DNA of 64,000 nt from an uncultured Candidatus Saccharibacteria bacterium (GCA_964646465.1 CAZYEN010000029.1:2670-66669); one strand, 5' to 3'. Shown: positions 1 through 40,227, counted from the stretch's first letter. Translations and numbers: made by a program. Notes: a model not told the origin generated them from the sequence alone.

Positions 1-625
1 GTAGCGGAAAGGTTGAGGCTTGTACCATCGACTCCCAACCATAATAACTCAATATGCGAGGAGATGTAAAAGATTGTCTTACTTGTCTACTGCACAACCA
101 GAGCCCGAAATGTCTCCAATATTGGAAAAATTTGGGTATGGATGCAAACATGGTATCTCTTTCAGACATGAATATGGTGTTGAGATCTCCTACAATGATG
201 TCGTGGTCATTATCATTTAATATAGCTCTTAGCTCTCTTTCTCTTTTGACAGACGAATTAGCTTCTAAATATGTCACCGCTATCTTAACTCTATATATAT
301 CAAGGGAAACAAAGTTTCTATCCCCGTATAGGTTTTTAAGGGTACTAAATACAACCTCTTCAGGAATATCTTTTCTAACTAAGATGGCATAGTTCATATC
401 CTCTATATCTCCAAGAGGATACAATCCTTCCAATCTGTACTCTGGGAAGAGATGCTCAAATGTACCTTCCTGCCATTTATTCCAACCAAAAGCATCGATG
501 ATTGCCACCACTGATGGAGTAAAAAAATTTATGCATTCTGCGATTTGTCCTAGTCTTAGAGTATAGCCATAAATGTCTTTAATTTTGTAGTCTTTCTGAC
601 CTCCCTGGCAGATATTCCAAACCAT
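1..625 (-). CDS. Endonuclease/exonuclease/phosphatase (EEP) family protein, partial (C-terminus beyond window edge)
   Basis: My own minus-strand translation from the ATG (rc of 623-625) runs stop-free to position 1, more than 200 codons in ~30% GC DNA. The N-terminus reads MVWNICQGG and a later IIVGDLN motif is typical of the EEP fold. The ORF is absent from the track only because no stop codon falls inside the window. Confidence 0.55.
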   Translation of the reverse strand, partial: MVWNICQGGQKDYKIKDIYGYTLRLGQIAECINFFTPSVVAIIDAFGWNKWQEGTFEHLFPEYRLEGLYPLGDIEDMNYAILVRKDIPEEVVFSTLKNLYGDRNFVSLDIYRVKIAVTYLEANSSVKRERELRAILNDNDHDIIVGDLNTIFMSERDTMFASIPKFFQYWRHFGLWLCSRQVRQSFTSPRILSYYGWESMVQASTFPL

Positions 626-721
626 TAAGGTTAGAGAGTTTGTAGTGACCACTTGCAAAAGCTATAAAGAACATTATCTATATAACATATTTTAGCTATA
701 TTTGCAAGAGGGGGAGTAAAG

Positions 722-925
722 AAAAAACCCCGCTGCTTAGCGGGGTTGGATAGGTGTCCAAAGGCGTTCCAGCCATCTGGTACATTGCTCTGGGCTCATG
801 ATGAGCCAGAACCTGTCCATCTGGACAGGGGGGAGAACCACTGACTTCTCCCTATGGGGAGAGGAAGTTTCTGGTTGCTTGATCTCGAAAGAAATTTGAG
901 ACATTGTTTTATGTCTATTTTCAAT
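722..925 (-). ncRNA. Candidate structured RNA or cis-regulatory leader: GC-rich multi-hairpin transcript ending in an intrinsic terminator
   Basis: On the minus strand, a consensus promoter at 930-958 is followed by about 170 nt carrying at least four perfect 6-8 bp hairpins. Examples are cctgtcca-tc-tggacagg, ggctca-tga-tgagcc, cttctccc-tatg-gggagagg and ccag-atgg-ctgg. The region ends in the hairpin ccccgctaagcagcgggg plus a U6 tail (rc of 722-750). It is markedly GC-richer than its flanks. Confidence 0.35.
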
Positions 926-929
926 TACA

Positions 930-958
930 ATTATACCATAAAAACAGTGTTTTGTCAA
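930..958 (-). promoter_or_regulatory. Sigma-70-like promoter TTGACA-17-TGgTATAAT (extended -10), minus strand
   Basis: The rc of 953-958 is TTGACA. A 17-nt spacer follows, and the rc of 930-938 is TGGTATAAT. Confidence 0.4.
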
Positions 959-1010
959 CATATAGTGTCAAATATGAAAAATAAAAAGCCGTACAAATCA
1001 ATTGTGCGGC

Positions 1011-1898: not shown

Positions 1899-2666
1899 TC
1901 AAACTATAGCTTTAAAGCGAGGTCTTTTGCGCATTTTATTTATAAGCAGGCTAGAGGATAGGTACCAACAGTTCTCAAGGTGTTCGAGCTTAGTATCGAC
2001 AATATATATAATACACTTTGTGAAACTCCTATTTTGAAAATATCGAATTACTTCATCATTGAGCCGTTCTATGTTTCTTTCGGAAACAAAGTAATGTAAT
2101 CCTGCCTCATTCTCGTCGTGATGCTCAAAGTGTAGCCACTCCTGATAATCTCCTCCTTCATATTTTGTATTACAACTACAAATCATATCAAGGTCAGAGA
2201 CATTATAGTTTATAAGATTTAAGAAATCAAATACGTACCTTAGTTTTGTTATCTTCGGAATGTATAGTATCTTTAAATTTTTTAAATGTATTTCTAAAGA
2301 TTGCATTGGTCCCATCTTTAGCCTAGCAACAGGTGCATACCGTACATACTGGTTGTGGGGTTTATAGGAAGCTACACAATACTCTCCACACCATTGAATA
2401 TCCCATTGAATATCATAAAAATCAGTAATTTTATTGATGATTGGAGTTATTAAAAGTTTATTCCCGATAAAAATATAATGATTTACAGTATCTAGAGAAT
2501 TCTTATCTGGATCAGCCAATATATTGTTTGCAACCTCCTCCAACTCCTCTGCATAGAGTGGGAGTTGGACATTAATTATTATGGCCAACGAAGTGAGTCG
2601 GCGGGGTCTTACTCTTGGCTTTTCTCTGAACTTCATTTTAGTTCTCCAATTTTTGTGAAAGGGCAA
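1899..2666 (-). CDS. Hypothetical protein
   Basis: A 255-aa ORF with no recognisable motif. A -10-like TGGTATGAA abuts the annotated ATG, so the true start may be the downstream MKFREKP Met. Confidence 0.45.
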   Translation of the reverse strand: MPFHKNWRTKMKFREKPRVRPRRLTSLAIIINVQLPLYAEELEEVANNILADPDKNSLDTVNHYIFIGNKLLITPIINKITDFYDIQWDIQWCGEYCVASYKPHNQYVRYAPVARLKMGPMQSLEIHLKNLKILYIPKITKLRYVFDFLNLINYNVSDLDMICSCNTKYEGGDYQEWLHFEHHDENEAGLHYFVSERNIERLNDEVIRYFQNRSFTKCIIYIVDTKLEHLENCWYLSSSLLINKMRKRPRFKAIV

Positions 2667-11928: not shown

Positions 11929-14640
11929 ATGAAAAAAACTAAAAACTATTATCAGTTATCCATTGAAGAGTCTTTATTGGCTACTAAATCTAATCTTACT
12001 GGACTCACTAATCAGGAAGTATTGGATAGAAGGCGAGAATATGGTGAGAATATATTATTAACTAAGCAAGTAGAATCTCCTATTTGGCTGTTTTTAAAAC
12101 AATTTCATAATGGATTAGTATATGTGCTTTTACTAGCAGCTATTATATCTGTGATGTTTGATCATTGGGTGGATTTTTGGATTATTATTGTAATTATAGT
12201 TATAAACTCGATCATTGGATTTTATCAGGAGTATAGAGCTGAGAGAGCTGTAGTTGCTTTGGCTAAAAAAATATCTGTTAAGACCAAGGTCTATCGGGAT
12301 GGACATCTAGAAGAACATGATGCAAAGGATTTAGTACAAGGAGATATTATTGTGTTGGAGGAGGGTGATAAAGTTCCGGCTGATGCGAGGTTGATTGAGG
12401 CTGTCGAACTACAAACTATCGAGGCTTCTCTTACCGGAGAGTCTCAGCCATCTTATAAATCTATAGATATTATTACAGAAGATGTAGGTATTGGAGATAG
12501 AAGTAACTTAGTTTGGATGGGGACATTGGTAGCTACTGGATGGGCTAAGGCTGTAGTAGTAGCTACTGGAATGAATACAGCTATTGGAGTTATTGCAGAT
12601 GATTTAGACAAAGTAGAAATTGAAAGAACACACTTTCATATTCAAACAGATATATTAGCTAAACAACTGGCTATCTTTGCCTTTAGCTCGGCCGCTATAT
12701 TGTTTGTAATCGGATTTTGGTTTAGACAATTACCATTAGATGAAATGATTGGGTTTACTTTATCCGCTTTGGTTGGAGGCATTCCTGAAAGTTTACCTAT
12801 AGTATTGATTGTAGTATTGGCTATTGGAGCTAAGAGAATGAGTGATAAAAAGGCCATTATTCGCTCTTTACCAGTGACAGAATCTTTAGCTGTGATGGAC
12901 ACTATTATTACAGATAAAACTGGGACTTTGACTGAAAATAATATGACAGTGCAAAAAATATGGGTTTTAGGAGAGGAAATGGTAGATGTTAATGGTAGAG
13001 GCTTAGAGACAAAAGGAGAGTTTACACAAGGGACAAATAATATAATCCCCCTAGATTATCCCGGTATCTCTAAATTATTACATATAGCAGGTTTAGCTCA
13101 TAATGGTCAGATATATGAAGAAGTTTTAGAAGATGGAAGTTCTGTCGTGAAGAGTGTGGGGGACCCAACCGAGGTAGCTTTATCTATTGTCTCAATGAAG
13201 TCTAATCTCAATAAAGATTTACTGGATAGTGATTGGCATCGTTTGGCAGATTTGCCATTTCGTTCGGAGAATAAATTTCGAGCTACTTATCTTCACAATG
13301 TATCTCAAGATACCCATCAATTAATGGCTATTGGGGCTAGTGAGACATTATTGAATTTGAGCAATAAAATTCTAGACAAACAAGGAAATTTAATTTCCTT
13401 GAATGATGAGCATATTCAGGAGATCAATAAGCAAGTAGCACATTTGTCTAAACAAGCAATGCGAGTTATCGCTCTTGCTTATAAAGATGAAAAAGATAAT
13501 TTGAATGGCCTTAATGTTGAACAAGTACAGGATTTGGTCTTTGTAGGACTAGTAGGAATTATAGATCCACCAAGAGCTGAAGTGGCACAAGCCATTGCAC
13601 AAGCTAAACAAGCTGGAATTAGAGTGATTATGGCCACAGGAGACCATAAAGATACTGCTCTTGCTATTGCTAAATCTATTGGACTTATTGATGAGACAGG
13701 TCAAGCTCTTACGGATACTGAAATTCAAGAACTATCTGATAGAGAACTTTATAAAAAGTTAAAGACAATTTCTGTGCTAGCTAGATTAAGCCCTAGAACT
13801 AAAATGCGAGTAGCAGATATTTTTCAAAAACATAAACATATAGTGGCTATGACAGGAGATGGAGTCAACGATGCCCCGGCTCTTAAAAAGGCGGACATAG
13901 GTATATCTATGGGCATCAGAGGCACTGATGTGGCTCGGGAAGCGAGTGATATTGTGCTTACAGATGATAATTTTGTAAGTATAATATCCGCCGTAGAAGA
14001 GGGGAGGGTAATATTTAGGAATGTGCAACAAACTAGTATATTCTTGATTACTACCAGTGTAGCGGAGATTTTATTATTTATATTAAGTTTGAGTTTAGGT
14101 TTACCACTACCACTTTTAGCAATTCAAGTCCTGTGTCTTAACCTAGTCACTAATGGAATCTCAGATATTGCCCTAGCAACGGAGCGAAGTCATAAGAATA
14201 TTCTACTAGAGAAGCCATTACCAGTAAATATGCCAGTAGTCTCACCTAATACCTATCCATATATTATAATCATGACACTTACAATGACTGGTTTAGGATT
14301 TTGGATCTATCTAGCTTATTTGGGCAATGGAATAGAGCAGGCTAGAACAATGTTTTTCTTGTGCTTAGCCTTGATGCAATTAGCTAATACCTATAATATG
14401 CGATCCCCAAAAGAATCATTGTTTAGGATAGGATTTTTCTCTAATAAAATGATAAATCTAGCAGTTATAGCCTCATCCTTGATATTAGTAGCTATGATAA
14501 CTATGCCATTTTTACAAAATATCCTACAATTCACACCCGTTTCTCTATATGATGCAATCTATTATGGCTTTATCTCAATCGTGGTTGTCATCGCCGTCGC
14601 CGAATTCTATAAGTGGAGAATGAGGTTGGAGGGGAAGTAG
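11929..14640 (+). CDS. Cation-transporting P-type ATPase (P2-type, Ca2+/Mg2+-like)
   Basis: The phosphorylation motif DKTGTLT, the hinge motif MTGDGVNDAPAL, a TGES motif, and ten TM segments. Confidence 0.9.
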   Translation: MKKTKNYYQLSIEESLLATKSNLTGLTNQEVLDRRREYGENILLTKQVESPIWLFLKQFHNGLVYVLLLAAIISVMFDHWVDFWIIIVIIVINSIIGFYQEYRAERAVVALAKKISVKTKVYRDGHLEEHDAKDLVQGDIIVLEEGDKVPADARLIEAVELQTIEASLTGESQPSYKSIDIITEDVGIGDRSNLVWMGTLVATGWAKAVVVATGMNTAIGVIADDLDKVEIERTHFHIQTDILAKQLAIFAFSSAAILFVIGFWFRQLPLDEMIGFTLSALVGGIPESLPIVLIVVLAIGAKRMSDKKAIIRSLPVTESLAVMDTIITDKTGTLTENNMTVQKIWVLGEEMVDVNGRGLETKGEFTQGTNNIIPLDYPGISKLLHIAGLAHNGQIYEEVLEDGSSVVKSVGDPTEVALSIVSMKSNLNKDLLDSDWHRLADLPFRSENKFRATYLHNVSQDTHQLMAIGASETLLNLSNKILDKQGNLISLNDEHIQEINKQVAHLSKQAMRVIALAYKDEKDNLNGLNVEQVQDLVFVGLVGIIDPPRAEVAQAIAQAKQAGIRVIMATGDHKDTALAIAKSIGLIDETGQALTDTEIQELSDRELYKKLKTISVLARLSPRTKMRVADIFQKHKHIVAMTGDGVNDAPALKKADIGISMGIRGTDVAREASDIVLTDDNFVSIISAVEEGRVIFRNVQQTSIFLITTSVAEILLFILSLSLGLPLPLLAIQVLCLNLVTNGISDIALATERSHKNILLEKPLPVNMPVVSPNTYPYIIIMTLTMTGLGFWIYLAYLGNGIEQARTMFFLCLALMQLANTYNMRSPKESLFRIGFFSNKMINLAVIASSLILVAMITMPFLQNILQFTPVSLYDAIYYGFISIVVVIAVAEFYKWRMRLEGK

Positions 14641-19329: not shown

Positions 19330-19450
19330 TTAGATTTGAACTATTTCACCCCCCTTTTTTTAGGAGGGGGTGCCTGAAAGGTAGGGGGTGGATTGCTTTT
19401 TGTCTCCCTTAGGAGGGAGTACCCGTAGGGGGAGGGAGGACAGAAAGCAT
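19330..19450. repeat. GC-rich hairpin repeat cluster. It contains a 44-bp unit (19398-19440) that recurs inverted at 30903-30946
   Basis: The hairpins cacccc...ggggtg, ctccct-tagg-agggag and ccc-gta-ggg are present. ttttgtctcccttaggagggagtacccgtagggggagggagga matches the rc of 30903-30946 with two mismatches. Confidence 0.6.
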
Positions 19451-19547
19451 TCATAATTTACAATTTATAACTTTATTATCTCATCTAGTGCCAATATTGA
19501 CAAAATATATTATTCCTGTTAATATATTTTCATATTCTACATATGTA

Positions 19548-30258: not shown

Positions 30259-30335
30259 TGGAGCCAATGGTGGGGATCGAACCCACGACCTATGCGTTAC
30301 GAATGCATTGCTCTACCAGACTAAGCTACATTGGC
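30259..30335 (-). tRNA. tRNA-Thr (anticodon CGU) with encoded CCA
   Basis: The rc reads GCCAATG-TA-GCTT-AGTCTGGTA-GAGC-A-ATGCA-TTCGTAA-CGCAT-AGGTC-GTGGG-TTCGATC-CCCAC-CATTGGC-T-CCA. I folded this cloverleaf by hand. The anticodon is CGT. Confidence 0.85.
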
Positions 30336-30819: not shown

Positions 30820-31020
30820 GGAGGAGGTGGCACGAAGTGGCGGTGGTGTATTAGGTTTAATATTATTACAAACAAGTGTTTATTTTAGTATTTCAAAATT
30901 TATCCACCCTCCCCCTACGGGTACTCCCTCCGAAGGGAGACAAAATATCAAATACAGGAGACTGCAAGGTCGCCCCTACGGAAAAACATTATGGAGGGGT
31001 AAACCCTCCGCTACGAGAAA
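30820..31020. repeat. GC-rich hairpin repeat cluster, an inverted copy of the 19330-19450 family
   Basis: The hairpin tcctcc-aaa-ggagga is present. tccaccctccccctacgggtactccctccgaagggagacaaaa (30903-30946) is the reverse complement of 19398-19440. An internal partial duplication (gtaggggcgacc...agtctcc) is also visible. Confidence 0.6.
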
Positions 31021-31044
31021 AAAAAGCCCCGCTGAGTGCGGGGC
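31013..31044 (-). terminator. Intrinsic terminator (gccccgcactcagcggggc plus U8) downstream of the GC-rich gene
   Basis: The hairpin and T-run are seen on the minus strand. Confidence 0.55.
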
Positions 31045-31065
31045 TTGAGTTGTAGGATCGGTGTC

Positions 31066-31632
31066 TCAGGAAGCCATGAGATCAAACAGAAGTTGGTACC
31101 ATTGATCGAGACCATCATTCAGGAGCTCCAATGCTTGGTCATCGATCACCTCCATCACTGGGGGGTGAGGTTTCCCGATGATGGCTGGTTTGCTACCTAG
31201 TTCTTCTCGGACACTCTCCCAATATGAGGCCGTCTTAGTTGAAAGCTGGAAACGTTCTCCAAGGAAGGTGGTATCCATTGAGGGCACCTGCCCAGGTAGG
31301 GTTCTATTAAACTCATTCCGCTCCTCCTGAGCGGCGAGAGACACCAAAGCCTCACGGGCTTTGGTGGCCTGCCCGTAATCAATACGGGCTAGATCCCGTT
31401 CGAGCTCTATGAGCTCAGCACTTCTGTCGCACCAAGGCGACACAAGTCGGTAAAATTCCACCAGCTGAGTGAGAGGAGTTCCTCCATGACTACGGAGAGA
31501 TAGGGCAGTATGAGTCCCTGTAGCTTTCTTCTTCAAGTGTTCCAGCTTCTGCTCCACTTGAGCAGAAGAGGTTCCTAGCGAGCGAAGTCGCTGAGGAATA
31601 TGAAAATTGGAGAGGACTGTGGTGATAGCCAT
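31066..31632 (-). CDS. Hypothetical protein encoded in a ~50% GC island
   Basis: A strong AAGGAG ribosome-binding site lies 8 nt upstream of the Met at 31632. Sampled lines are 45-57% GC, against about 28% for their neighbours. No motif was recognised. Confidence 0.5.
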   Translation of the reverse strand: MAITTVLSNFHIPQRLRSLGTSSAQVEQKLEHLKKKATGTHTALSLRSHGGTPLTQLVEFYRLVSPWCDRSAELIELERDLARIDYGQATKAREALVSLAAQEERNEFNRTLPGQVPSMDTTFLGERFQLSTKTASYWESVREELGSKPAIIGKPHPPVMEVIDDQALELLNDGLDQWYQLLFDLMAS

Positions 31633-31711
31633 TAGGCTAACTCCTTGTAAAATGTACAGAATTAACCATACCACAAAATCAACAAAATGTCAATATATAT
31701 AGACAAATATT

Positions 31712-37227: not shown

Positions 37228-40227
37228 TTATAATACTTTTATTCCCAAGACTCTTTCTAGTTCTGCAAAATCAGTAGTATGGTCTAATACCTTTAGGATA
37301 CCAGAAACTTCTAAAGTTGTCATCCCTTCCTCAATAGCTAGGCTCTTGATATTAGCAGTTGAGGCATTAGATATAATAGTTTCTTTGATTCTGGGTGTCA
37401 GTACTAATACCTCAAATATAGCAGTGATGCCATTATATCCATTTGGATGCTCGGGGCTAGACTTAGACTCAAGAATAGTATCAGGTATTATACTATGATA
37501 TCTCTCTGGTAATTTAGATTTGATTATATCTTTTTGTTCATCAGAAAGGGTAATAGGGGTTGCATTAGTAGGGTCTATTTTTCTAACAATTCTCTGAGCA
37601 ATAGTCACATTTACAAAAGTAGCTATTTCAGACAGTCCCACTCCCAAGTCATATAATCTTAAAATAGCCGAAGCAGCATCATTGGTATGTAGAGTAGACA
37701 ATAATAAATGTCCAGTAGCTGCTGTTTGCATCGCTACCTTAGCAGTCTCTCCATCTCTTATCTCCCCGATTAAGACAATGTTTGGATTTTGTCTTAAAAG
37801 AGCTCTGATAGCATTAGGGAAACTATAACCAGTCTCTTCATTGATACTGGTCTGTAAAATTCCAGATAATTTATATTCAATTGGATCTTCTATAGTGATA
37901 ATTTTGACTCCAGGTTGATTTAGCGTGTTGAGGGTGGCGTAAAGAGTTGTAGACTTACCAGCACTGGTAGGCCCGGTTACTAAAATTAGTCCAGTAGTTG
38001 CTTTTAACTGTTCCTGTAAAAGTTTAATATTATACTCATCCATGCCGAGGTCTTGTAATTTTATATTAGTAATATCTGATCTTAGTATTCTAAGTACAAT
38101 AGTCTGTCCATAACCTCCTGGAATGATAGAAACTCTGACATCAAAGTTTTTGTCTGTAAAAATAGTGAATCTACCTTCTTGGATTTTATTAGCAATATCT
38201 AAAGGTAGCCCAGTAAAAATTTTAATTTGGCTTAAAATTTGAGGATAGAGTGATTTCGGAACACGAGCTTCCTCATACAATACTCCATCAATCCGAAATC
38301 TAATTATAAGATCAGACATATCTGGCTCAAGGTGAATGTCGGTGGCTCTTTTAGTTAATGCAGCATTAGTAATAGCTGTAAGTTGGTCGTTAATAGACAT
38401 CGATTCAGATATATGGTCAATTTCGGGTAGAGAATCACCAGATTTGTTAATATGAATTCCTCGAGATAAGGCTGACGTCAAAGTAGTCTCATAAATTTCA
38501 TCTACATAAGATATATCTCCCGCCACAGATAAAACCTCTTCAAGGGAAGTCTCTCCATCTACTGCATGTAATACTCCATCTTGAAACAGAGTAACCATAC
38601 CATTTTCAATAGCTTTTCTAAAGATTTTAAATTCTGGAGTATTGTTAATAATTAAATCTTTAATATTGTCACGGGTTTCAAATAATTCATATAAAGCAAG
38701 TCTGCCCTTATAACCTATACCATAACACTTAAAGCAACCTTTTGGACGATATAATCTAGTAATATCTTGAGGTATGGTTAAGTTAGATTTAGGCGATATT
38801 ATAGCCAAGGCTTTTTTTATATAATCTAATTCATTTTCTTCTGGAATATACTCTTCCTTACAATCACATAGCCTCCTTACTAATCTCTGAGCTACAAAAA
38901 GATTCATTGCCGAGATTATTAGTTGGGGGCTAGAACCAAACTCTTTTAATCTAGTAATAATTCCTACCGAATCATTTGTATGAATAGTAGAGAAAACTAA
39001 ATGTCCTGTAATAGCTGCGTTAACAGATATACTAGCTGTTTCATTATCTCTAATTTCTCCAACCATAATTACATCAGGGTCTTGTCTTACAATAGCTTTT
39101 AGTCCATTGGCAAAAGTATATCCTTTTTTATTATCTACTTGAGTTTGATTAATGTTGTGTAATCTATATTCAATAGGATCCTCAATAGTAATTATATTCG
39201 TTTCACTCCGATTAACATAATTAAGAAAAGAGTATAGACTAGTAGTTTTACCTGAACCTGTAGGCCCAGATAACATTATCATTCCTTGAGGTTTGTCTAG
39301 ATTTCTAACTATAATATCTAAAAAAGATTCACGAATGCCAAAATCATAAATATCTAAACTATGAACTGCTGTATTAAGCAGTCTCATAACGATAATCTCT
39401 CCAGTTTTACTAGGTAAGATAGAAACTCTAACGTCAATAGATTGCTTTATATTCCCATTACTCTCTTTGATGGTAATAGAAAATCGACCATCTTGAGCAA
39501 TAGTTTTAATATTTAAAACTAGAGAGGCTAAATTCTTGACTCTTGAAATTAATAATTTATACATTTCATTATCAAAGTTCAAAATATCTTGTAAAACTCC
39601 ATCTATACGGTATCTAAGACGAGTAATATCTCCTTTTGGCTCAATATGTATATCACTAGCAAGTGCTGTTATAGCCCCAGCACAAATTATTTGAGTTAAT
39701 TCAGAAGTGTCAATAGCGTCAATTTTACGAGCAAAATCTTCTAATGAGACTACTCCTTGATTAAACTCATCGATCATTGTAAGAGGAATTATTAATTTAT
39801 CTTTAACAATTTCACTTCTCTCCTGTAAAAATTCATAGGAATTATAACCCTTCTCTAAACTATACTGTGAAACTAGATACAAATCCAGTCCATACTTATT
39901 TTGATACAACCTTTGCAATATTGTTTTAGCTATAGGATTATCTAGATCTTGTAGCGCTATCTTAAGATTTAGTCCAGATCTTTGAAAAATTATCATCTTA
40001 GCTTTTTGGGCCTGTTCTTTAGTTAGAATTTTAAGAGCATCTGGATTAATTGGAATAAATTGCAAGTTAAGATAAGGTATACCAAGACTATCTGCTAAAT
40101 TTTGAGTATTAGATTCTTCTTCTTTTTTACGGATAGTAGATAAATTCATATCTACCACATTGTCAGAATGTAATTTATCTCGAAAGCTTTGCCGATTGGA
40201 TTTTTTTTGTTTTAATATTGTGCTCAT
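37228..40227 (-). CDS. pilB: Tandem-fused double GspE/PilB-type secretion ATPase (type IV pilus/T2SS assembly ATPase x2)
   Basis: Two complete units are present. Each has a GspE N-domain-like region (ASDIHIEP), a Walker A (GPTGSGKTT and GPTSAGKST), an Asp box (VGEIRD and IGEIRDGETA) and a His box (GHLVFSTIHTND and GHLLLSTLHTND). A CxxC...CxxC tetracysteine motif sits between them. Confidence 0.85.
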   Translation of the reverse strand: MSTILKQKKSNRQSFRDKLHSDNVVDMNLSTIRKKEEESNTQNLADSLGIPYLNLQFIPINPDALKILTKEQAQKAKMIIFQRSGLNLKIALQDLDNPIAKTILQRLYQNKYGLDLYLVSQYSLEKGYNSYEFLQERSEIVKDKLIIPLTMIDEFNQGVVSLEDFARKIDAIDTSELTQIICAGAITALASDIHIEPKGDITRLRYRIDGVLQDILNFDNEMYKLLISRVKNLASLVLNIKTIAQDGRFSITIKESNGNIKQSIDVRVSILPSKTGEIIVMRLLNTAVHSLDIYDFGIRESFLDIIVRNLDKPQGMIMLSGPTGSGKTTSLYSFLNYVNRSETNIITIEDPIEYRLHNINQTQVDNKKGYTFANGLKAIVRQDPDVIMVGEIRDNETASISVNAAITGHLVFSTIHTNDSVGIITRLKEFGSSPQLIISAMNLFVAQRLVRRLCDCKEEYIPEENELDYIKKALAIISPKSNLTIPQDITRLYRPKGCFKCYGIGYKGRLALYELFETRDNIKDLIINNTPEFKIFRKAIENGMVTLFQDGVLHAVDGETSLEEVLSVAGDISYVDEIYETTLTSALSRGIHINKSGDSLPEIDHISESMSINDQLTAITNAALTKRATDIHLEPDMSDLIIRFRIDGVLYEEARVPKSLYPQILSQIKIFTGLPLDIANKIQEGRFTIFTDKNFDVRVSIIPGGYGQTIVLRILRSDITNIKLQDLGMDEYNIKLLQEQLKATTGLILVTGPTSAGKSTTLYATLNTLNQPGVKIITIEDPIEYKLSGILQTSINEETGYSFPNAIRALLRQNPNIVLIGEIRDGETAKVAMQTAATGHLLLSTLHTNDAASAILRLYDLGVGLSEIATFVNVTIAQRIVRKIDPTNATPITLSDEQKDIIKSKLPERYHSIIPDTILESKSSPEHPNGYNGITAIFEVLVLTPRIKETIISNASTANIKSLAIEEGMTTLEVSGILKVLDHTTDFAELERVLGIKVL

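Follow-up and report, generated by a model that had tools for sequence, protein, structure and literature searches.

SgrS-SgrT, RNAIII-delta-haemolysin (hld), and SR1-SR1P are transcripts of ~200 nucleotides (nt) with a strong promoter and an intrinsic terminator of their own, a small open reading frame (ORF), and an excess of RNA structure. The pherotype alleles of agrD, comC, and comX combine conserved ends with old, discrete middle classes that are exchanged by recombination, while attenuators of the pyrBI type place a short ORF running into an intrinsic terminator before a co-directional gene, an arrangement in which the ribosome would mask the terminator. Conserved ends with a variable centre are a pattern known from trans-acting small RNAs (sRNAs), such as those of the OmrA/OmrB type. 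We recognized a likeness to each of these systems in a promoter-to-terminator unit located around positions 720 to 958 of a 64,000-nt stretch of DNA (hereafter, the window) from an uncultured Candidatus Saccharibacteria bacterium (GCA_964646465.1, CAZYEN010000029.1:2670-66669). A first-pass annotation, made from the sequence alone, had described this unit as a GC-rich structured RNA upstream of an EEP-family gene.

Comparison with these systems also revealed clear differences. Unlike in SgrS, RNAIII, and SR1, the ORF occupies nearly the whole transcript, and there is no known base-pairing target, Hfq-type module, or conserved helix set and no similarity in sequence or in Rfam. In contrast to agrD, comC, and comX, the unit is not adjoined by co-varying processing, export, or sensor genes, and neither a leader or double-glycine motif nor a signal peptide occurs in its product. 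The pyrBI type differs in that the gene downstream of the unit has its own promoter, that the unit is also found detached from this gene, and that the peptide is constrained, whereas the departure from OmrA/OmrB is that the variable centre retains an open frame with coding signatures. Set against all of them, the unit is most likely an orphan small-protein gene, in which the replacement of alleles and the selection on structure at synonymous sites are unusual. We favor, with a probability of about 0.72, the reading that it is the mRNA of a fast-evolving orphan small protein in a Parcubacteria-like bacterium and that the hairpin-rich character of this mRNA is under selection.

The unit lies on the minus strand and consists of the following features, with coordinates given as positions in the window (mean GC content of 0.33):

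953..958, minus: -35 hexamer TTGACA, invariant across seven loci, followed by a 17-nt spacer of variable sequence
930..938, minus: extended -10 element TGgTATAAT, of which TGnTATAAT is invariant across seven loci
905..923, minus: putative short, A-rich 5' untranslated region (UTR), with AAAUAGACAUA conserved
916-911/904-899, minus: start-codon hairpin AGACAU-AAAACA-AUGUCU, 6 bp, a perfect inverted repeat
737..904, minus: ORF of 55 codons plus TAA, MSQISFEIKQPETSSPHREKSVVLPPVQMDRFWLIMSPEQCTRWLERLWTPIQPR, type A allele, open in all variants
749..886, minus: variable interior ("cassette"), codons 7 to ~52, GC content 0.54
862-857/852-847, minus: hairpin H1, UCUCCC-CAUA-GGGAGA, 6 bp, a perfect inverted repeat
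829-823/818-812, minus: hairpin H2, CCUGUCC-AGAU-GGACAGG, 7 bp, including the first CCAGAUGG
807-802/798-793, minus: core of hairpin H3, GGCUCA-UCA-UGAGCC, 6 bp, a perfect inverted repeat
747-739/734-726, minus: terminator stem-loop AACCCCGCU-AAGC-AGCGGGGUU, 9 bp, followed by TTTTTT
720..725, minus: T-run of the terminator

The first-pass annotation had read this layout correctly in its essentials. The promoter that it called near-consensus is indeed TTGACA-17-TGgTATAAT at 958-930, with matches at 12/12 hexamer positions and an extended -10 TG, and it is the sole perfect site in the first 3 kb; the transcript would start ~7 nt after the -10 element. The GC-rich stretch was borne out by values of 0.50 to 0.57 over 701-900 (100-nt windows), compared with 0.2 to 0.35 in the surroundings, making the unit one of 10 stretches reaching a GC content of 0.5 in the 64 kb and the second richest of them (0.57). 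Where at least four perfect hairpins had been reported, five were found (6 to 9 bp, including the terminator), with H3 extended by an outer helix, UUCUGG/CCAGAG, over ~787-813. The repeated motif, CCAGATGG, was recovered at 824-817 and 780-773, and this 8-nt sequence, present twice, is the sole repeat in the unit, no tandem repeats being found. The intrinsic terminator, placed earlier ~100 nt before the EEP gene, ends in a T-run ~95 nt before the ATG of that gene; its stem-loop is identical in 7/8 aligned unit-carrying loci, and the stop codon of the ORF (TAA, 739-737) sits in the terminator loop, the same arrangement recurring in all variants.

Ten variants of the unit were collected from metagenome loci, by protein searches with the ORF translation, through homologues of the downstream gene, and by a scan for the terminator sequence, and they were divided into two allele classes. 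Type A comprises the window (= L002), L004, L019, and L006 (3' part only), and type B comprises L001 (= L003), L017, L013, L018, L028, and L005 (3' part only). Among the proteins retrieved, P0024 is a type B homologue of the ORF product, and P0001 (67% identity) and P0025 (49% identity) are type A homologues; a HMMER search of the whole library returned the latter two and nothing else credible, the match to P0026, a repetitive translation of 778 amino acids (aa), being rejected as spurious. The scan with a terminator 24-mer yielded one true homologue (L013) and three unrelated loci carrying the terminator sequence only, while a search of the metagenome contigs with a leader 23-mer and a blastn search of phage and plasmid collections gave no match. 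The downstream gene has relatives in metagenome-assembled genomes assigned to Parcubacteria or Paceibacterota, and the organism is therefore a bacterium of the candidate phyla radiation (CPR). A search of the literature brought up no relevant work on small proteins or structured RNAs of CPR bacteria.

Comparison of these variants revealed that the ORF frame contains no stops in 8/8 variants counted and is also open in L006 and L028 (10/10 in total), while the other sense frames of the unit contain 1 to 4 stops. Based on dinucleotide shuffles, the chance of an open frame was 0.07 to 0.20 per variant, with a product of ~2e-4 over four variants that diverge from one another. In L004 and L013, stops close the frame upstream of the ATG, which fits with the location of the promoter there. 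Moreover, all internal gaps in nucleotide-only pairwise alignments are 3 or 6 nt long. In an RNAcode-like test, in which the same number and type of substitutions were placed randomly and scored with BLOSUM62, the ORF frame displayed a BLOSUM excess of z = 2.65 to 4.04 in 8/11 pairs and of 1.2 to 1.9 in the three others, all of type B, compared with -1.3 to 1.7 in the two other frames. For instance, in the segment LPPD.RSPFWLVMSP, eight codons differ between L019 and L006, seven of them synonymously, and the more distant pairs show an excess of substitutions at third positions. The open frame, the gaps of 3 or 6 nt, the frame-specific conservation, and the existence of homologues together indicate that the ORF is a coding sequence, with a modest constraint on the peptide.

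The first-pass annotation had noticed the 55-codon ORF and set it aside for want of a ribosome-binding site. There is indeed no Shine-Dalgarno sequence upstream of it, but 36/46 long ORFs in the window are likewise without GGAG, GAGG, or AGGA, so that its absence means little; the regions upstream of these long ORFs are A/T-rich, and the initiation context of the ORF matches this genome norm. The preference for an RNA over the ORF was overturned, a conserved homologous small protein having been found in P0001 and P0025. A purely non-coding structured RNA, be it a riboswitch or an sRNA whose ORF is incidental, would be in line with strong structure z-scores in a GC-rich island and with the missing Shine-Dalgarno sequence, the AUG placed in a hairpin, and the atypical codon usage, yet it is at odds with a frame that is open throughout, with indels in multiples of three, and with conservation specific to the ORF frame. 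Neither an overall covariation of helices nor an Rfam family was found, and the sequence between the conserved ends is fully replaceable, which is incompatible with a ligand-binding aptamer; we therefore regard this explanation as highly improbable.

Several observations weigh against a protein-coding reading of the unit and account for our reservations. In close pairs, substitutions are spread evenly over the codon positions ([11,12,15] and [9,12,11]), and the ratio of synonymous to nonsynonymous codons is ~1:3, with weak purifying selection. The GC content at third codon positions of the ORF is 0.40 to 0.63, compared with a genome mean of 0.245 and maximum of 0.50, which is atypical for a native gene. 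The AUG is covered by a hairpin, and L006 has no canonical start, its 5' part being replaced and its nearest upstream ATG lying out of frame by 1 nt. Pfam, NCBIfam, PADLOC, and PDB sequence searches with the peptides returned no match, and AlphaFold2, run with a three-sequence type A alignment, predicted a sole helix (residues 38-48) with a predicted local distance difference test (pLDDT) value of 62. Finally, the RNA structure described below is selected in its own right, leaving room for a function at the RNA level.

Alleles are replaced between strains whose flanks are 96 to 100% identical. Three metagenome contigs carry an identical sequence of the upstream 256-aa protein, and on these contigs the promoter, the first ~60 transcribed nt, and everything from the terminator onward are 100% identical, but two of the three have unrelated sequence in place of the ~140 to 150 nt between them. 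Between the window and L001, for example, identity reaches 96% in the 4.6 kb upstream and 99.5% downstream, with no similarity in the ORF interior, and in L018, where the EEP gene is 96% identical, a third cassette is present. The break in similarity falls at codon 7 on one side and at the terminator on the other. In the type A backbones L004, L019, and L006, the flanks are only 71 to 79% identical to the window, whereas the type B backbones L001, L017, and L018 are 84 to 99% identical to it; the classes therefore predate the divergence of the current backbones, and recombination moves them. Types A and B resemble each other weakly (HG..QG, GR.E.LP; 32% identity between the window and L018), which suggests that they share a distant common origin.

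The flanking 256-aa and EEP-like proteins are 98 to 100% identical across allele classes, and since the neighboring genes do not co-vary with the allele class, a cassette of the pheromone-receptor type is argued against. Searches of the 64-kb window and of every locus for further copies, silent or paralogous, of the leader, the terminator, the interior, or the peptides gave none, so nothing points to pilin-like conversion with silent cassettes as donors or to a repeated mobile element. An integron cassette was rejected, as an integrase is lacking and the boundaries carry no attC core motif. The upstream neighbor in L018 is a different, 225-aa gene, indicating that the locus is a mosaic. A decaying or drifting remnant without function, lying in a recombination hot spot and owing its GC content to biased gene conversion or foreign origin, would be consistent with this mosaic locus, with a ratio of nonsynonymous to synonymous rates (dN/dS) near 1 in close pairs, and with the orphan status of the sequence. 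Its probability is nonetheless the lowest among the explanations weighed here: even where the flanks are only 71 to 85% identical, the locus keeps its promoter hexamers, its start codon, its frame, and its terminator, the constraint is frame specific, and the structure exceeds that of synonymous recodings.

The implication of the first-pass annotation that the RNA is structured was substantiated. The whole transcript has a minimum free energy (MFE) of -80.3 kcal/mol, with z = -6.6 versus dinucleotide shuffles, and the ORF interior of the window alone, deprived of the start hairpin and terminator, has z = -3.3. The interiors of 8/8 full-length variants reach z values of -2.6 to -5.2 versus dinucleotide shuffles, against a folding baseline of mean z -0.04 (standard deviation, 1.24) in 80 coding segments of the window. 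Furthermore, when codons were permuted synonymously, the native MFE was lower in 7/7 variants tested (z of -1.5 to -3.9), and at most 1.3% of the permutations folded as well as the native sequence in 5/7 variants. As the native ORFs fold better than their synonymous permutations, codon choice favors pairing. One 140-nt segment of the coding baseline is itself an outlier (z = -5.75; MFE, -50.8 kcal/mol) and may, judging from its predicted fold, be a structured element inside a gene.

The individual helices are not what is preserved. Each variant has its own set of three to six internal hairpins in roughly similar positions, with a hairpin of differing sequence near the H1 position in most variants and hairpins of 11 bp in L018 and 12 bp in L028 at nt 22-49; a hairpin of 4 to 7 bp that includes the AUG is predicted in 7/8 full-length variants. 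H3 is the best conserved type A helix and the only one to persist, its base showing a single swap from G-C to C-G, while L019 breaks 4/6 predicted H2 pairs and 4/11 H4 pairs, H2 being retained in L004. Covariation, by which the first-pass annotation had proposed to judge the RNA, spoke against a fixed fold: in addition to the helices broken in L019, the RNAalifold covariation term was unfavorable (+0.35 and +1.25 kcal/mol), with low power given only three to four sequences per type. As a positive control, the terminator of the upstream 256-aa gene (986-1012) showed clean compensation, from C-G to U-A and from A-U to G-C, between the window and L004. The earlier statement that the unit belongs to no known RNA family was upheld, as nothing credible emerged from Rfam: at the gathering threshold, only a tRNA elsewhere in the window passed, and at E <= 10 the best local score was 19.7 bits, driven by the terminator, versus a threshold of 49.5. 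In our reading, selection acts for a generally hairpin-rich, stable mRNA and not for one fixed fold.

This excess structure, present in every variant and beyond that of synonymous recodings, is an argument for a dual-function RNA, which would encode the peptide and in addition regulate through its hairpin array or its conserved 5' 40 nt, by base pairing, protein binding, or acting as a decoy. The strong promoter and terminator of its own would suit such an RNA, as would the conservation of the 5' end and terminator around a variable centre. All full-length variants have a GC content of 45 to 54%, and this range persists where the flanks have diverged to 71 to 85% identity, which argues that it is maintained across diverged lineages and does not stem from recent import. 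Local compensatory changes, namely the swap at the base of H3 and an A-U to C-G change in the 11- to 12-bp hairpin of L018 and L028, point the same way. Against these stand the lack of conservation of single helices, with the unfavorable covariation term and the pairs of H2 and H4 broken in L019, and the lack of an Rfam match; the UTR, the start codon, and the first codons account for the conservation of the 5' segment, and no target or partner has been identified, no target search having been made. We consider a regulatory role in addition to the coding one unlikely, albeit a possibility to be taken seriously.

The EEP-like gene, co-directional and ~100 nt downstream of the unit in most loci, bears on whether the unit is a leader. 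Two features belong to it:

1..625, minus: 5' part of the EEP-like gene, which runs off the window; ATG at 625-623, full 290-aa form in L002
679..707, minus: promoter of the EEP-like gene, TTGCAA-17-TGtTATATA, between the terminator and the ATG

This promoter, which a consensus scan missed because its -10 element ends in A, is conserved in its hexamers and TG, with a variable spacer, across 10 loci, two of which (L006 and L020) have no unit upstream. L020 and L008-L012 have the EEP-like gene but not the unit; EEP homologues at 53 to 79% identity lack it, those at 53 to 57% entirely, and a scan of genome contigs with the EEP alignment found only relatives at 53 to 54%, all without the unit. In L006, a convergent gene comes after the unit, with the EEP-like gene 1.9 kb off, behind a Polysacc_synt gene. 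Thus, the riboswitch or attenuator leader proposed in the first-pass annotation fails, as a conserved promoter of its own precedes the EEP-like gene and the unit is absent or detached at other loci, the helices moreover not being conserved. The unit is instead an autonomous gene, its own promoter keeping invariant hexamers around a variable spacer. The alternative offered in the same annotation, an independent small RNA, was right as to a self-contained promoter-terminator unit and wrong in that the unit carries a conserved coding ORF.

A leader could still act through translation. In a translation-coupled attenuator, a ribosome reaching the stop codon in the terminator loop would block the terminator, and read-through would add the output of the strong promoter to the EEP-like gene, the sequence of the peptide being irrelevant and the hairpins pacing either RNA polymerase or ribosomes. 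In its favor, every variant has its stop codon in the terminator loop, Pro-Pro motifs are present in most variants, the ORF is retained while much of the peptide drifts, and the position of the EEP-like gene in most loci is suitable. The separate promoter after the terminator, the convergent gene facing the unit in L006, and the EEP homologues without a unit nevertheless speak against it, no conserved antiterminator pairing appears in the consensus folds, and frame-specific conservative replacement shows that the sequence of the peptide matters. Such an attenuator is accordingly very unlikely in our estimation. With respect to the EEP-like gene itself, its earlier assignment to the EEP family has indirect support: the homologue P0014 (53% identity) passes PF03372 with a score of 26.0 bits (cut-off, 24.5), and precomputed PF03372 annotations exist for two homologues, whereas the fragment in the window and the full-length L002 protein have no Pfam match at E <= 10. 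A PDB profile search with the EEP-like family gave no match.

On the favored reading of an orphan small-protein gene, the product has 55 residues (MSQISFEIKQ...), with variants spanning 54 to 59 residues, and it is hydrophilic, with no hydrophobic stretch and neither a signal peptide nor a transmembrane segment. Type A proteins share the C-terminal module LPP-x5-FWL[IV]MSP[EQ][EQ]xT[RK]xLE..P..PR, and type B proteins share the pattern ..GR.E.LP..AKKP.L...E[IV].[IV]QVIP..G...WTTG..IQPR. The poorly conserved N-terminal half is probably disordered, and the C-terminal module may be helical, a prediction of low confidence; a ribbon-helix-helix interpretation of FWLIMSPEQCTRWLERL was rejected, the second helix being absent and no profile matching. 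Pro-Pro motifs (LPPV, IPPQGG, LPPL, KPPL, and NPPPS) occur in 9/10 variants, L004 having LFPV instead, and are potential EF-P-dependent pause sites. The tryptic peptides expected from the predicted product are as follows:

Type A: SVVLPPVQMDR, FWLIMSPEQCTR, and WLER
Type B: LDNEVHIQVIPPQGGFIWTTGNFIQPR

According to this reading, the sigma-70-type consensus promoter (958-930) would drive a monocistronic transcript of ~200 nt that ends at the terminator (747-720), and the AUG at 904 would be translated without a Shine-Dalgarno sequence, as is usual in this Parcubacteria-like genome; we infer both transcription and translation from sequence. Homologous recombination, anchored in the conserved 5' leader plus first six codons on one side and in the terminator on the other, would swap the allele classes, and the resulting pattern points to diversifying or balancing selection on the peptide. 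Beyond the demands of coding, the choice of GC-rich codons would give the mRNA a series of stable hairpins. These hairpins presumably act by stabilizing this short and heavily transcribed mRNA, by throttling its translation, or both, and the AUG hairpin would contribute.

A bolder version of the same gene would have two layers, a strain-specific peptide and an equally strain-specific hairpin array, both kept, with allele classes that predate the species-level splits held under balancing selection. It is a speculative extension that we think doubtful, a little more so than the dual-function RNA. If it were true, the gene might serve as an identity or compatibility tag in an episymbiotic CPR bacterium or as a decoy against phage or host factors, and selection on "being hairpin-rich" over a fixed fold would be an unusual kind of RNA constraint. 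The small-protein gene has consequences without it. A false riboswitch or sRNA candidate is removed, illustrating that in AT-rich genomes poor in Shine-Dalgarno sequences a GC-rich small ORF can mimic a structured RNA. Moreover, an orphan small-protein family of Parcubacteria-like bacteria is defined, with a consensus-strength promoter, exchanged old allele classes, and synonymous-site structure selection as its unusual traits. Should the allele classes reflect an interaction with a host, a phage, or kin, the locus would provide a handle on CPR ecology, which is poorly understood.

Two toxin-antitoxin interpretations were rejected. A ToxI-like type III antitoxin RNA does not agree with the lack of tandem repeats, the EEP-like gene downstream, and the lack of a PADLOC match, and a type I toxin mRNA does not agree with the hydrophilic peptide and with there being no promoter-like site on the opposite strand within 700-960. 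A sponge of the Csr/Rsm type was likewise considered and set aside.

Further observations concern the ends of the unit. A (T)TGACAC motif at 966-975 (minus), 13 nt upstream of the -35 hexamer, is invariant in seven loci and could be a UP-like element, a second -35 hexamer, or an operator. The exact 24-nt terminator ACCCCGCTAAGCAGCGGGGTTTTT also ends unrelated genes at L014:2639-2662, L015:264-287, and L016:602-625, which are unrelated metagenome contigs, two of them >500 kb; this could reflect convergence on a good terminator sequence or a shared element. The L006 and L028 contigs, from different samples, start with an identical 28 nt (AGTGGTGCTTTTGATTATAGAATATGCG), which in L028 precedes the full type B ORF and in L006 abuts the 3' half of the type A ORF. 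At the 5' end of L006, the allele may be truncated, the assembly may have branched, or the sequence may contain an error.

In the remainder of the window, the two genes adjoining the unit upstream, at 1011-1781 and 1899-2666 (minus), are orphans encoding 255 to 256 aa, with a marginal mutual similarity of 23% over 122 aa (E 0.08). Their proteins have no Pfam, NCBIfam, or PADLOC match, and the 256-aa protein has no PDB sequence match. The richest GC stretch of the window, at 30901-31630 (maximum, 0.59), overlaps an ORF at 31066-31674 near the sole tRNA (30262-30335), and further stretches with a GC content of >= 0.5 (100-nt windows) occur at 19331-19460 and 13841-13960. A 999-aa protein at 37228-40227 (minus) contains two T2SSE (type II/IV secretion ATPase) stretches and an MshEN domain, as would fit the pilus machinery that CPR bacteria typically possess.

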